64,000 bases of DNA, from assembly GCF_031412795.1 (NCBI RefSeq), contig NZ_JANODR010000017.1, positions 64,001 through 128,000 of the forward strand. The letters run 5' to 3'. The DNA comes from Archangium sp. Its GTDB lineage: Bacteria; Myxococcota; Myxococcia; Myxococcales; Myxococcaceae. Shown in pieces: positions 54,428 to 59,800 of this stretch (within the stretch, counting starts at the first letter, position 1; each line of letters begins with the position of its first letter). The notes beneath the pieces were generated by a model. That model saw only the letters and a list, made by a program, of their open reading frames with translations. It did not search any database and was not told the DNA's origin. A program made the translations under genes and the position numbers.

Positions 54428-56722
54428 ATGCAAGCGAGCCCCATGCGCTATATACGCGAGGCTTTTTGGCCTCCCCCTGTCGCTGGAGCTCCGCACCAGA
54501 TGCTTCGATTGCCTCCCTCCATCCAAGCGCTGCTGTCGCGCGGCTCGGGGCGACACGTTGTCTCCGCTGCCCTGGCGGTCGCGCTGGCGCTCACGGTGGT
54601 CATGCGCTTCGGCCCGGAGTGGCTCCGGGAGGCCTCCGGCAGGTGGTGGGGGGTGGGTGCGCTGGCACTGCTGCTGTCCTGGCCCCTGAACCGGGGACTT
54701 GGAGTGCTGGTGGGCTGGCTCCAGTCCTACTCGCGGTGGGGCCGGGCTGGCTGGCTCCTGGGCTCGCTCGCGGGGGCCGCGCTGCTGATCATCGCCACGC
54801 CGCTCTCCCCGCCGCGCTTCCCCGAGACCTTCCGCCTGGAAGTGACGGCGACGGGCGAGAAGAGCGAGGCCAGCCAGAACACCGAGGTCTGGGTAGCGGG
54901 AATCCACGACGCGACGAGCGGACAGCGGCTCGACCTCGAGCCCAAGCGCGTGTCTGGCCAATGGCAGGAGAAGTACGGAAAGCTGCTCTCGGTGGGGCGC
55001 CCCGTGGCGACCCTTCGCTGGGAGGGCGTGCTGAAGCAGAAGTCGGTGCTGAAGCTCACCCGCCACGCCTGGTCGGGCCAGGCGCGCGTCACCCTCAACG
55101 GAGAGACCCAGACGGTGGAGCTCTTCTCGGCGAGCCAGGAGGACTGGGTCCTCCCGCTCGAGACGGCGTCCACGGCGAACGGGCTCCTGTCGGTGCTCTT
55201 CCGGCTCGCGGAGCTGGTGAGCATCGGGTTGCTGCTGTTGTCGGTGGGGACGGGGCTGGCCTCCTGGTCGGGGCCGGAGCGCGTGGCGGAGCCGAGCCGC
55301 TGGGGCTGGTTGGCTCCCGCGGGCGTGTGCGCGGCGAGCTGGAGCCTCTACCTGCTGTCGTTCTGGCCGGGCTTCATGACGGCCGACTCCATTGATCAAT
55401 GGACGCAGATGACGCGAGGGCCGCTGTCCAACCAGCACCCCGCCTACCACACCCTGACGAACTGGCTGCTGACGCGCGTGTGGGAGTCGCCCGCCGCCGT
55501 GGCGATCACCCAGATCCTGGCGCTGTCCCTGGCCTTCGCCTTCGCCCTGCGGGAGCTGGCGCGCTGGGGCGTGCCGGCATGGCTGCGCGGGGTGTTGACG
55601 GTCCTCGTCGCCCTGACGCCCGTCAACGGCGCCCTGGTGATCACCCTGTGGAAGGACATCGCCTACACCATCTCCATGCTGGTGCTCTTCACCCTGCTGT
55701 TGCAGGTGGCGCGCACCCGCGGAGAGGCGCTCCGCTCGACGCGCTTCCTGGTGGGGATGGGCGTGACGCTCACCTACACCGCGCTCATGCGCCACAACGG
55801 CGTGCTGGTGGTCTTCGCGCTGCTGGGCGGCTTCATCCTCATCAGCCCCAAGGCCCTGCGGCGCCGCGCGGCCGTGCTGGCGCTCGCGGTGGGCAGCACC
55901 TTCGTGCTCATGAGCGGCCCGCTCTACAAGCTGCTCGGGGTGCAGCCGATGAATGGGCTCTTCGCCCACATCTTCCAGATCCACCACGTGGGAGCGATCG
56001 TCCGGGCCTCGCCGGAGTCCCTGACGGCGGCGGATCGCCAGCTGCTCGAGGACATCCAGCCGTGGCAGGTCTGGCGTGACTCCTACTACTGCTATTCCAT
56101 CAACCCGTTGGTCTACAACGGGAAGATCGACGGCAAGTTCTTCGAGACGCCGCGCAAGAAGGAGTTCACCGCGCTGTGGCTGAGGCAGGCGCCCAAGCAC
56201 CTGGGGGTGCTCGCCGAGCACCAGGCGTGTGTGTCCTCGCTGGTGTGGCGGATCCTCCAGCCGACCGACGGCTACCTGTACCTCTTCAACTTCGACATGG
56301 AGCCCAACCGGCTGGGGCTGGTGCAGGAGCCGAAGCTGCCGGCGGTGAGGCAGGAGCTGGTGCGCGTGCTCAACAGCTCCTTCAAGCCGAAGCGGTTGTG
56401 GTGGGTCTGGCGGCCCGCGCCGTACCTGTACCTGACCCTCTTCCTCGCGCTGATCGCCGCGGCGCGGCTGCGCAGCGCCTGGGTGCTGCTCCCCGTCGTC
56501 CCGGTGGCGCTCAACTCGGCGGTGCTGCTTGGCATCAACCTGGCCCAGGACTTCCGCTACCAGTACCCCGTGTATGTGGTGGCGCTCTTGAGCCCGGCCT
56601 TCCTCTTCATGCGGCGAGGCGCCCTGCGGGCCCAGGAGACGGTGACACCGCCCGTGTCCCTCCAGGCGGCGAGCGAGCCTCCAGGCGAGCGGGAGGAGTC
56701 CAGGCACGCCGTTGCCTCCTGA
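54428..56722 (+). CDS. Large polytopic membrane protein, GT-C-like (ArnT/PMT/Gtr-type) candidate periplasmic glycosyltransferase or polymerase
   Basis: 764 aa. N-terminal TM, then a ~200-aa soluble beta-rich segment, then at least 10 predicted TM helices. Function inferred from architecture and neighbourhood only. Start uncertain (54428, 54443 or 54500). Confidence 0.5.
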   Translation: MQASPMRYIREAFWPPPVAGAPHQMLRLPPSIQALLSRGSGRHVVSAALAVALALTVVMRFGPEWLREASGRWWGVGALALLLSWPLNRGLGVLVGWLQSYSRWGRAGWLLGSLAGAALLIIATPLSPPRFPETFRLEVTATGEKSEASQNTEVWVAGIHDATSGQRLDLEPKRVSGQWQEKYGKLLSVGRPVATLRWEGVLKQKSVLKLTRHAWSGQARVTLNGETQTVELFSASQEDWVLPLETASTANGLLSVLFRLAELVSIGLLLLSVGTGLASWSGPERVAEPSRWGWLAPAGVCAASWSLYLLSFWPGFMTADSIDQWTQMTRGPLSNQHPAYHTLTNWLLTRVWESPAAVAITQILALSLAFAFALRELARWGVPAWLRGVLTVLVALTPVNGALVITLWKDIAYTISMLVLFTLLLQVARTRGEALRSTRFLVGMGVTLTYTALMRHNGVLVVFALLGGFILISPKALRRRAAVLALAVGSTFVLMSGPLYKLLGVQPMNGLFAHIFQIHHVGAIVRASPESLTAADRQLLEDIQPWQVWRDSYYCYSINPLVYNGKIDGKFFETPRKKEFTALWLRQAPKHLGVLAEHQACVSSLVWRILQPTDGYLYLFNFDMEPNRLGLVQEPKLPAVRQELVRVLNSSFKPKRLWWVWRPAPYLYLTLFLALIAAARLRSAWVLLPVVPVALNSAVLLGINLAQDFRYQYPVYVVALLSPAFLFMRRGALRAQETVTPPVSLQAASEPPGEREESRHAVAS

Positions 56723-56803
56723 CGAGGGCAGACGAGCAGGCGGGCTGGCTTGACGCACCCTACCGCCTGTGGTCTATGCCGCCTTTCCGACCGGATTGTG
56801 AAG

Positions 56804-57979: not shown

Positions 57980-58992
57980 TGGCTGTGTTGGATTGCTTCG
58001 TGTCGGTGGTGGCGCCGGTCCACCAGTGCGGTGGCTTCATCCAGGAGTTCATCGCCGAGGTGATGGCGGTGCTGCGGGGCCACTACACCAACTACGAGCT
58101 GGTGCTGGTGGACGACGGCTCCACGGATGAGACGCCGAAGAAGGTGAGCGAGGCGCTCTCCCAGTACTCGTGCATCCGCTACATCCGCCTGTCGCGGCAC
58201 TTCGGCATGGAGACGGCCATCGCCTCGGGCCTGGACACGGTCATCGGCGACTTCGCGGTGGTCATGCTGCCGGAGTGCGACCCTCCCGGGCTCATCCCCG
58301 AGATGGTGCAGCAGGCGCGCAGCGGAGCCGCGGTCGTCTTCGGCGTGCGCAAGGACCGGGCCGGCGAGCCGTTCTGGATGCGGGCGGGCGCGGGGCTCTT
58401 CTACTGGGCCACCAAGCGCGTCTTCCACGGCGCGCTGCTGCCCAACTCCACGCAGTTCCGGGTGCTCAGCCGGCAGGCCGTCAACGCCGTCACCCGCATC
58501 AAGGAGAAGTACCGCTACCTGCGGCTGCTCAGCTTCCACGTGGGCTACGCCAACCAGAGCTTCCTCTACACGCCGGTGTGGCGGGACGGGAAGCGGCGCG
58601 GGCGCGGCTTCTGGGACTCGGTGGGGCTGGCCATCAACATGGTGGTCTCCTACACCACGCACCCGCTGCGCTGGGTGGGGTGGCTGGGCCTGCTGGCCAG
58701 CGGCCTCAACCTGCTCTACATGGGCTACGTCATCACCATGTTCTTGCTGCTGAAGGACAGGATCGCCGAGGGCTGGACGACGCTGTCGCTGCAGGCCTCG
58801 GGCATGTTCTTCCTGCTCTTCCTGTGCCTCTCCGTGCTCGCCGAGTACGTGGGCCGCATCCTGGAGGAGTCGCGCGACCGGCCGCTGTACCACGTGCTGG
58901 AGGAGCGCAACAGCAACGTGCTGCTGGCCGACAAGGAGCGCACCAACATCGTCAAGGAGTCCGCGCCGCCGCGGGAGGCCGCCCATGGATGA
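57979..58992 (+). CDS. GT2 polyprenyl-phosphate glycosyltransferase (GtrB/ArnC/DPM1-like) with C-terminal TM helices
   Basis: VSVVAPVHQ..., YELVLVDDGSTDET, two C-terminal hydrophobic helices typical of bactoprenol glucosyltransferases. The ATG overlaps the upstream stop. Confidence 0.75.
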   Translation: MAVLDCFVSVVAPVHQCGGFIQEFIAEVMAVLRGHYTNYELVLVDDGSTDETPKKVSEALSQYSCIRYIRLSRHFGMETAIASGLDTVIGDFAVVMLPECDPPGLIPEMVQQARSGAAVVFGVRKDRAGEPFWMRAGAGLFYWATKRVFHGALLPNSTQFRVLSRQAVNAVTRIKEKYRYLRLLSFHVGYANQSFLYTPVWRDGKRRGRGFWDSVGLAINMVVSYTTHPLRWVGWLGLLASGLNLLYMGYVITMFLLLKDRIAEGWTTLSLQASGMFFLLFLCLSVLAEYVGRILEESRDRPLYHVLEERNSNVLLADKERTNIVKESAPPREAAHG

Positions 58993-59800
58993 GTCGCTGA
59001 AGCAGGGCTGGGAAGTGCCGACCTACACGGTCACCGAGCTGCACGAGAAGCGCTCGCGCTACTGCGTCTGCATCTTCGTCATCAACGAGGGCAAGAAGCT
59101 GCACAAGCAGCTCGAGCGGATGCGGCCCTTCACCGGCAACGTGGACGTCATCATCGCGGACGGTGGCAGCACGGACGGCTCGGTGACGGCGGAGGCGGTG
59201 GGGCCCCTGGGTGTGCGCACCGTGCTGGGCAAGACGGGCGCCGGCAAGCTGAGCGCGCAGATGCGCATGGGCTTCGCCTACGCCCTGGAGCAGGGCTACG
59301 AGGGCGTCATCACCATCGACGGCAACAACAAGGACGACCCGGACGCCATCCCCCGCTTCGCGCAGGCGCTTGACGAGGGGTACGACCACGTCCAGGGCTC
59401 GCGTTTCATCCCCGGCGGCCAGGCGGAGAACACCCCGGCCATGCGCTGGCTGGGCATCAAGCTCGTCCACGCCCCGCTCATCAGCCTCGCCTCGGGCGTG
59501 CGCTACACCGACACCACCAACGGCTTCCGCGCCTACAGCCGGCGCTTCCTGGTGGACCGGCGGGTGGCGCCCTTCCGCGACGTCTTCTCCCGCTACGAGC
59601 TGCACTACTACCTCGCCATCCGCGCCCCCGAGCTGGGCTTCCGGGTGGTGGAGCTGCCCGTGGCTCGGCGCTACCCGGGCACCGGCCCCGTGCCCACGAA
59701 GATCAGCGGGATGCGCGGCAACTTCCTCGTGCTGCGCACGCTCGTGGAGGCCTGCCTCCATCGCTACCATCCCCCAACCCAGGAGCAGCACCGTGCCTGA
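58985..59800 (+). CDS. GT2 family glycosyltransferase (soluble, DPM1-like)
   Basis: CIFVINEGKKL...VIIADGGSTDGS...ITIDGNNKDDP. 8-nt overlap with the upstream gene. Confidence 0.75.
   Translation: MDESLKQGWEVPTYTVTELHEKRSRYCVCIFVINEGKKLHKQLERMRPFTGNVDVIIADGGSTDGSVTAEAVGPLGVRTVLGKTGAGKLSAQMRMGFAYALEQGYEGVITIDGNNKDDPDAIPRFAQALDEGYDHVQGSRFIPGGQAENTPAMRWLGIKLVHAPLISLASGVRYTDTTNGFRAYSRRFLVDRRVAPFRDVFSRYELHYYLAIRAPELGFRVVELPVARRYPGTGPVPTKISGMRGNFLVLRTLVEACLHRYHPPTQEQHRA

Follow-up and report, generated by a model that had tools for sequence, protein, structure and literature searches.

What does a large membrane protein contribute when its gene lies among glycosyltransferase genes beside an ABC-type polysaccharide exporter? 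The question is raised by positions 54428-61387 of a 64 kb stretch of Archangium sp. DNA (contig NZ_JANODR010000017.1, about 70% G+C; hereafter the window), whose nearest protein matches were in Archangium, Cystobacter and Hyalangium. The six genes in this region form one translationally coupled operon adjoining wzm and wzt. They encode a membrane protein, a flavin adenine dinucleotide (FAD)-dependent oxidoreductase, two family 2 glycosyltransferases (GT2), an SDR-like (short-chain dehydrogenase/reductase) enzyme and a TIM (triosephosphate isomerase) barrel protein, with start and stop codons overlapping at the junctions within the last five genes. These five are referred to below as the cassette, the GT2 with a transmembrane (TM) hairpin (57979-58992) as GT2a and the GT2 without TM helix (58985-59800) as GT2b. 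We consider it reasonably probable that the operon encodes an extracytoplasmic, post-polymerisation, Gtr-like system that adds a side branch to the neighbouring Wzm/Wzt-exported polysaccharide. This reading is built on the GT-C fold of the membrane protein, the gene order, the recurrence of the cassette as a conserved unit, the residue patterns in the active sites of its enzymes and their homology to genes of Escherichia coli O162. The locus differs from a routine Gtr system in having more than three components and a degenerate 'GtrB', and very likely also in a sugar that is edited by redox chemistry.

The first gene of the operon is an open reading frame (ORF) on the forward strand (54428-56722), with a coding-type G+C content at third codon positions and a length of 764 amino acids as called. 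Because all 22 aligned homologs begin at its Met25, the gene probably starts at position 54500 and encodes 740 amino acids, correcting the length given in an initial annotation of this DNA, whose description of a polytopic protein with a soluble loop otherwise held. Helix positions and charge distribution indicated about 14 TM helices and cytoplasmic N- and C-termini. Predicted to lie on the periplasmic side are a beta-sandwich (residues ~124-248), the loop carrying the motif FWPGxMxxD320S..QW, residues H337, H341, WKD410, D708, R710 and Y713, and also a helical loop of 160 residues; the placement of the beta-sandwich, motif loop and conserved residues is as expected for a GT-C active site. 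D320 was invariant in 23 homologs and also present in the E. coli homolog, and judged from these alignments it is the conserved acidic residue of the first long extracytoplasmic loop that marks GT-C enzymes. A comparison of folds was needed because a profile of the protein searched against PDB sequences returned noise, namely chance matches to apolipoprotein E. In the structure comparison the core superposed on known GT-C enzymes, with Pmt4 second and ArnT third best match, and no transporter, O-antigen ligase or polymerase, or SEDS protein was among the top matches. The GT-C fold bears out the initial labelling of this membrane enzyme as 'GT-C-like', and by gene context its donor would be a polyprenyl-phosphate-linked sugar.

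The protein resembles the DUF6020 family (PF19484), for which it scored 20.7 bits (gathering cutoff 28.3), and homologs at 41–68% identity are recorded with PF19484. A search of NCBIfam matched no family and a literature search for DUF6020 found no paper, while a profile made from the GT-C homologs retrieved 11,443 cluster representatives. The beta-sandwich is inserted between TM3 and TM4, its core spanning residues ~133-243 (54824-55156, forward strand). When modelled alone it gave a pLDDT (predicted local distance difference test) of 91.5 and weak structural neighbours (Z at most 6.2), including a few carbohydrate-active accessory domains; a glycan-binding role is possible. Another Archangium sp. 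locus (L001) carries tandem DUF6020 paralogs at 7731-9710 and 10001-12220, the first without the beta-sandwich insert. At locus L089 a DUF6020 ortholog is followed by a gene (12208-13599) for a polytopic protein, at least 463 amino acids long, that the DUF6020 family profile failed to detect; its motifs PGW..WDS..QW and DFRYY recall DUF6020, and it may be a distant GT-C paralog.

The initial annotation had placed a GT2 with two C-terminal TM helices three genes after the membrane protein. That enzyme, GT2a (forward strand), is in fact encoded two genes downstream, separated from the membrane protein gene by the FAD gene alone, and the third gene, with which the annotated span ended, encodes the TM-less GT2b. 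The two helices were recovered as C-terminal hydrophobic segments in a hydropathy analysis, and residues 8-307 of GT2a aligned to GtrB of Synechocystis (5EKP; E 1e-39) with the TM hairpin included, as did the full length of GT2a to ArnC (E 3e-22) with its TM region; in NCBIfam the match was to PgfS (E 1e-45). GT2a thus has the GtrB/ArnC architecture of a GT-A domain, juxtamembrane helices and two C-terminal TM helices. As a claim of a GtrB/ArnC-like polyprenyl-phosphate GT2, the first reading is right in architecture and fails at the catalytic residues. In GtrB, D94 and D96 constitute the DXD motif, R122 and R200, the arginines for the acceptor phosphate, are key active-site residues, and a D157N mutant is inactive (PMC4728340). 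Equivalences read from the alignment to 5EKP showed L97, E99 and Q159 in GT2a in place of D94, D96 and D157, so that both the DXD motif and the catalytic aspartate are lost, and R124 and R202 in the positions of R122 and R200; the DDGS motif is also kept. Among 75 cassette-linked orthologs of GT2a, aspartate was found in none at D157, in 16 at D94 and in seven at D96, and arginine in 27 at R122 and in 38 at R200. The adjacent D99, F158 and R159 remained conserved across these orthologs, indicating that the alignment is in register. The E. coli ortholog is further degenerate, having lost DDGS, R122 and R200 as well.

GT2b (forward strand; Pfam GT2) is a soluble, DPM1/DPMS-like enzyme with the opposite pattern. 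Residues aligned to GtrB S45, D47, D94, D99 and R122 were kept in 55–56 of 56 orthologs, the equivalents of D94, D99 and R122 being invariant, and the residue aligned to D96 was asparagine in all 56, giving a D-x-N motif instead of D-x-D. Its matches to characterised families were all weak and comprised PfDPMS (E 1e-6) and, in NCBIfam, AglJ, a haloarchaeal dolichyl-phosphate hexose transferase and PpgS; the characterised proteins closest to it thus transfer hexoses to polyprenyl phosphate. Since the active site of GT2b is invariant and that of GT2a degenerate, GT2b is the probable catalytic polyprenyl-phosphate sugar synthase as judged by sequence, and from the same alignments we infer GT2a to be a non-canonical, possibly non-catalytic membrane partner that looks catalytically dead or repurposed. 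GT2a would then serve GT2b as membrane and lipid-binding partner, much as DPM3 serves DPM1. By analogy with DPM1/DPM2/DPM3, the dolichol-phosphate-mannose synthase of eukaryotes, a catalytic GT2 without TM helices would rely on a separate membrane protein; the partner in the window differs in being a GtrB-like GT2 paralog and not a small anchor protein.

The remaining three proteins are redox or epimerase-like enzymes. The FAD-dependent oxidoreductase (56750-57979, forward strand; probable start 56804, 391 amino acids) belongs to the DAO family (Pfam DAO, E 1e-17) and has more than 6,900 homologs that are 50–60% identical across phyla. DprE1, which is a member of the vanillyl-alcohol-oxidase flavoprotein family, was rejected as a homolog of this enzyme, whose family is DAO (PF01266) and not VAO/FAD_binding_4. 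The SDR-like NAD(P)-dependent oxidoreductase (59793-60566, forward strand; 257 amino acids; weak match to Pfam Epimerase) has a GxxGxxG Rossmann motif and S84, Y109 and R113 invariant in 55 orthologs. The xylose-isomerase-like TIM barrel protein (60563-61387, forward strand; Pfam AP_endonuc_2, E 1e-25) resembles ketose 3-epimerases, with E150, D184, H210 and E245 invariant in 49 orthologs, a tetrad whose spacing matches that of the ketose 3-epimerase residues for metal binding and catalysis. It matched the 5-keto-L-gluconate epimerase IolO in NCBIfam (E 1e-16) and TM0416 and tagatose/psicose 3-epimerases in the PDB, and its closest characterised relatives epimerise a carbon adjacent to a carbonyl. 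Two gene fusions join parts of the cassette. In a Methanosarcinales metagenome-assembled genome (MAG; 34% G+C) the SDR and TIM barrel are encoded by a single ORF of 526 amino acids (L077, 11008-12588), and in a Victivallaceae MAG the C-terminus of GT2b is joined to a domain of about 660 amino acids with at least seven TM helices and a soluble tail (L051, 12113-14896). These fusions support a functional coupling of the cassette parts.

The three-component Gtr-like system of the initial annotation can be set against these data. On that account GT2a would be an active GtrB making undecaprenyl-phosphate glucose or another ordinary sugar donor for the GT-C enzyme, and the FAD, GT2b, SDR and TIM barrel enzymes would serve otherwise, for example in making a nucleotide sugar for the backbone. 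GT-C and GtrB-like pairs are indeed common (PMC11127046), and the full-length alignments of GT2a to GtrB and ArnC, TM hairpin included, and its retention of DDGS, R124 and R202 fit such a pair. However, GT2a lacks D94 and D157, the latter being the residue whose mutation to asparagine inactivates GtrB; both positions vary freely in the orthologs, and the E. coli copy has lost further motifs. The five genes moreover travel together across phyla with overlapping codons, and the SDR-TIM and GT2b-membrane fusions tie the supposedly extra genes to the membrane pathway. We regard the plain trio as distinctly unlikely; what stands of it is the co-transcription of genes for a GT-C enzyme and a polyprenyl-phosphate-type GT2, as parts of a six-gene operon.

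All six components of the window operon are also present together in an E. coli operon, in a different order. Of 5,426 complete E. coli genomes searched at the DNA level, eight carry this enterobacterial version of the cassette. Strains 2012C-4221 and NCTC10973 have it in the gnd-ugd interval, immediately behind a wzm/wzt cluster of the O89/O101/O162 family, with the gene order FAD, GT2a, SDR, TIM barrel, a small multidrug resistance (SMR, 'EmrE') transporter, GT2b and a hypothetical membrane protein of 452 amino acids; the FAD counterpart is the gene directly after gnd. The 452-aa protein matched the DUF6020 profile (E 5e-16) and contains FYPGWMSPDS, LWKD and DYRY, so that the motifs PGxMSxDS, LWKD and DxRY are common to it and the window GT-C protein. 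Identities between window and E. coli proteins were 52% for FAD, 55% for GT2b, 45% for SDR, 35% for TIM barrel, 31% for GT2a and 25% for GT-C. The E. coli set differs in having the SMR gene, which occurs in enterobacterial and a few other cassettes and is absent from the window operon, in a GT-C protein that lacks the beta-sandwich and the first three TM helices, and in a GT2a even more degenerate than the window copy. The O101 and O162 clusters of E. coli are near-identical, and O162 has an additional side branch of 4-deoxy-D-arabino-hexose (PMC7685785). [quoted passage not shown] The same review called the biosynthesis of 4-deoxy-D-arabino-hexose unidentified and put the gnd-ugd genes forward as candidates for making and transferring it, a role that 'needs further investigation' (PMC7685785; Liu et al., 2019); a 2026 paper confirmed the structural difference between O101 and O162 and did not address the genes (PMC13168486).

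Among the E. coli entries, truncated FAD ORFs were common. Clustering at 90% identity places Citrobacter braakii with the E. coli GT2b, and Citrobacter makes O antigens that include 4-deoxy-D-arabino-hexose. The GT2a gene of 2012C-4221 (L086, 10107-11138) has an in-frame stop and is annotated as a 270-aa remnant; that of NCTC10973 (L087, 4128-5138) is intact, encodes 336 amino acids and is annotated 'hypothetical protein'. A second, diverged seven-gene cassette follows gnd in E. coli SY3626 (L088, 5989-12239), behind a different O-antigen cluster, and its 416-aa membrane protein gave no match with the DUF6020 profile.

The E. coli operon also bears on the possibility that the cassette works by a cytoplasmic Leloir route. 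The FAD, TIM barrel and SDR enzymes would in that case make a nucleotide- or phosphate-activated rare sugar, which GT2b would add to the Und-PP-linked (undecaprenyl diphosphate-linked) polymer before export, with the GT-C enzyme and GT2a acting separately. Such a route would suit a soluble GT2b without TM helix and ABC-transporter O antigens, which are normally finished in the cytoplasm, and the 'two glycosyltransferases' of the review are listed without assignment (PMC7685785). It is at odds with the absence of a nucleotidyltransferase from the cassette, with the DPMS, AglJ, dolichyl-phosphate hexose transferase and PpgS relatives of GT2b, which all act on polyprenyl phosphates, and with the fusion of GT2b to a polytopic membrane domain at L051. 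The SMR transporter and GT-C protein of the E. coli cassette are, in addition, hallmarks of a lipid-linked monosaccharide route. We consider a Leloir route unlikely, and a lipid-linked donor for the GT-C enzyme remains our preferred reading.

How widely the cassette occurs was assessed by scanning a genome collection with the FAD protein, which matched at least 600 stretches, of which 596 were confirmed. The cassette was scored at 83 loci with a FAD gene, 80 of them being the best of the at least 600 matched stretches. All five genes were present at 49 of the 83 loci, and the remainder were mostly on truncated contigs. The sampled loci span Cyanobacteria, Planctomycetota, Verrucomicrobiota, Saccharibacteria, Gemmatimonadota, Acidobacteriota and Enterobacteriaceae, together with one archaeon (the Methanosarcinales MAG). 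The order FAD, GT2a, GT2b, SDR, TIM barrel is repeated in Cystobacter fuscus and Hyalangium versicolor, where the cassette adjoins different large polytopic membrane proteins without Pfam match. Plasmids, among them those of Azospirillum, Cereibacter and Sphingomonas, also carry the FAD gene (matches H8-H18), suggesting horizontal mobility. A membrane neighbour, counted as a protein of at least 330 amino acids with at least seven TM helices that was embedded in the cassette or within 500 nt of it, was present at 33 of the 49 complete cassettes. Counted per side, the rate was 27/85, whereas control points lying 4 kb outward gave 8/51. The neighbours belong to many unrelated families, a pattern expected for acceptor-specific transferases. 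A Pfam scan of ten cassette-adjacent membrane proteins from other genomes found no family except for one weak PMT_2 match. In a metagenomic locus (L091) whose GT-C protein is 68% identical to that of the window, the gene order is DUF6020, FAD, GT2a. Because DUF6020 genes also occur without the cassette, yet L091 and E. coli pair both, the GT-C protein is best seen as an exchangeable, acceptor-specific module joined to a conserved donor-synthesis cassette.

A further possibility is that the GT-C enzyme acts on something other than the exported polysaccharide. It might modify a periplasmic or surface protein in the manner of PMT enzymes, lipid A or core in the manner of ArnT, or another exopolysaccharide. 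Pmt4 and ArnT were the second and third best structural matches and the fold does not reveal the acceptor; many cassettes lie outside obvious O-antigen loci, and at L091 the upstream gene differs and encodes a surface immunoglobulin-like protein and not O-antigen glycosyltransferases. Against these observations stand the flanking of the window operon by wzm/wzt and polymer glycosyltransferases, and an E. coli homolog that abuts an O-antigen cluster and whose correlated phenotype is an O-antigen side branch. We regard another acceptor as unlikely. The initial suggestion that the system decorates the O-antigen or another envelope glycan agrees with this setting, namely a wzm/wzt locus and E. coli homologs that are candidates for an O-antigen branch, while the acceptor itself is putative. 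Its core idea, that a GT-C enzyme and GT2 enzymes of the polyprenyl-phosphate type act together on an envelope glycan, survives with partial support.

Modification of the Wzm/Wzt-exported polymer is thus the reading for which we propose a scheme; its chemical steps, the identity of the sugar, its editing on the lipid carrier and the acceptor are all what we infer. At the cytoplasmic face, GT2b, helped by GT2a, would load polyprenyl phosphate with a common hexose taken from a nucleotide sugar. The DAO-family flavoenzyme would oxidise a sugar hydroxyl to a ketone, next to which the metal-dependent TIM barrel enzyme, acting via an enediolate, would either epimerise the carbon or eliminate a beta-hydroxyl, and the SDR-like enzyme would reduce the product. 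As in the O162 branch of E. coli, the edited sugar would most likely be a 4-deoxy-hexose; a sequence of 2-oxidation, 3,4-elimination and reduction would be chemically compatible with a 4-deoxy sugar changed in configuration at C2 and C3. The lipid-linked sugar would then be flipped, by the SMR protein in enterics and by another flippase here, and the GT-C enzyme would transfer it to the exported polymer in the periplasm.

Several points weigh against this proposal. No cassette enzyme has been characterised anywhere, literature searches found no paper characterising the pathway, and one on the O antigen of M. xanthus yielded nothing of use; the link between genes and sugar in E. coli is a correlation, which the review states as a hypothesis. 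The D-x-N motif in place of D-x-D means that activity of GT2b is not assured. As the initial annotation had remarked, no small GtrA-like flippase is encoded nearby: a hydropathy scan and phmmer with the E. coli SMR protein revealed no GtrA- or SMR-like small membrane ORF across the 64 kb, nor was a dedicated flippase gene of the GtrA, SMR/ArnEF-like or MATE type present within the window. The structural comparison yielded no convincing match of the beta-sandwich to a carbohydrate-binding module. The enrichment of membrane neighbours is real but modest, at about twofold per side, and about one third of the complete cassettes have none. Most cassettes adjoin unrelated membrane proteins without Pfam match, whose GT-C nature is putative, and among the 80 sampled cassettes a DUF6020-like neighbour was seen only in E. 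coli and at one Saccharibacteria locus (L058). Conversely, DUF6020-type GT-C genes without the cassette are found on the retrieved stretches of L001 (Archangium), L002 and L089. A nucleotide sugar, and not the lipid-linked one, could be what is edited, and a protein, core or lipid A, or another glycan could serve as acceptor.

Known systems share parts of this arrangement. GtrA/GtrB/GtrC of Shigella and Salmonella phages, GacI/GacL, CsbB/YfhO and Klebsiella gmlABC resemble the proposed system in cytoplasmic loading of a sugar on polyprenyl phosphate, flipping and GT-C transfer to a finished glycan. GT2a shares the domain and TM architecture of GtrB and the membrane protein the GT-C fold of these systems, whereas the window has no GtrA, its GtrB-like protein is without DXD and D157, and its module adds a second, soluble GT2, three redox/epimerase enzymes and a GT-C protein that is DUF6020-like. 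Like the system proposed here, the pentofuranose systems of Citrobacter youngae O1/O2 place an extracytoplasmic side branch on an ABC-transporter-dependent O antigen from a lipid-linked donor, with a GT-C enzyme carrying an extra soluble domain and auxiliary enzymes changing sugar identity (Kelly et al., 2024; PMC11127046). Those systems make their donor from phosphoribosyl pyrophosphate (PRPP) with a polyprenyl phosphoribose synthase and use a MATE flippase and a GT136 GT-C enzyme (Kelly et al., 2024; PMC11127046), whereas the window encodes a probable synthase of GT2 type, putative DAO/TIM/SDR editing enzymes and a DUF6020-like GT-C. The E. coli O162 gnd-ugd set is alike in having orthologs of all six components next to a wzm/wzt O-antigen cluster. 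In mycobacteria, DprE1 and DprE2 convert decaprenyl-phosphoribose to decaprenyl-phosphoarabinose, the flavoenzyme oxidising the lipid-linked sugar and an NAD(P)H-dependent SDR reducing it. The analogy to the present operon would lie in the proposed logic only, that is, flavoenzyme oxidation, SDR reduction and use of the product by a GT-C enzyme; the mycobacterial pair has no TIM barrel enzyme, and in the window the flavoenzyme is of the DAO family and the lipid-linked substrate putative.

The genes upstream of the operon include, on the forward strand, those for the Wzm permease (45999-46778; Pfam ABC2_membrane), the Wzt ATPase with a glycan-binding Wzt_C domain (46779-48125; Pfam ABC_tran, Wzt_C) and a giant GT2-GT2-WsaF-like protein of about 1,289 amino acids (~48122-51991; Pfam). 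The region 45999-51991 constitutes a complete ABC-transporter-type polysaccharide assembly core. A GT4-GT2 protein (Pfam) is encoded on the reverse strand at 52047-54392 and, with the giant protein, is assigned to backbone synthesis; the same large glycosyltransferase gene and a divergent GT4-GT2 gene are likewise found upstream of the DUF6020 genes at the Archangium locus L001 and at L089. Immediately 5' of wzm lies a CDP-alcohol phosphatidyltransferase gene (44908-45597), and upstream of it are an SLT transglycosylase gene and one for a TPR/AIM24 protein. Convergent on the operon is a gene for a GT4 glycosyltransferase of 540 amino acids (61845-63467, reverse strand; Pfam Glycos_transf_1). 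In Hyalangium a gene for a 543-aa GT4 (L005, 14609-16240) likewise follows the cassette at the matching position, and the GT4 gene may be a conserved neighbour of the cassette. Promoter and terminator scans of 54000-62000 gave signal at background level only.

Taken beyond this locus, the cassette may represent a widespread, uncharacterised pathway, in which a DPM1-like enzyme and a pseudo-GtrB load a hexose, the DAO, TIM barrel and SDR enzymes deoxygenate or epimerise it on the lipid, and the product is the donor for 4-deoxy-hexose branches added by diverse GT-C enzymes; we put this forward tentatively, as possible though short of probable. If true, it would solve the biosynthesis of 4-deoxy-D-arabino-hexose by giving its genetic and enzymatic basis, and the DprE1/DprE2 reaction would gain its first counterpart acting on a hexose. 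The pairing of a pseudo-GtrB with a DPM1-like enzyme would be a new way of building polyprenyl-phosphate sugar synthases, and the large uncharacterised family of DUF6020-like GT-C proteins would be assigned a function. Periplasmic addition of side branches drives antigenic variation of surface polysaccharides, and for uncultured phyla the cassette could act as a genomic predictor of glycans with unusual sugars.

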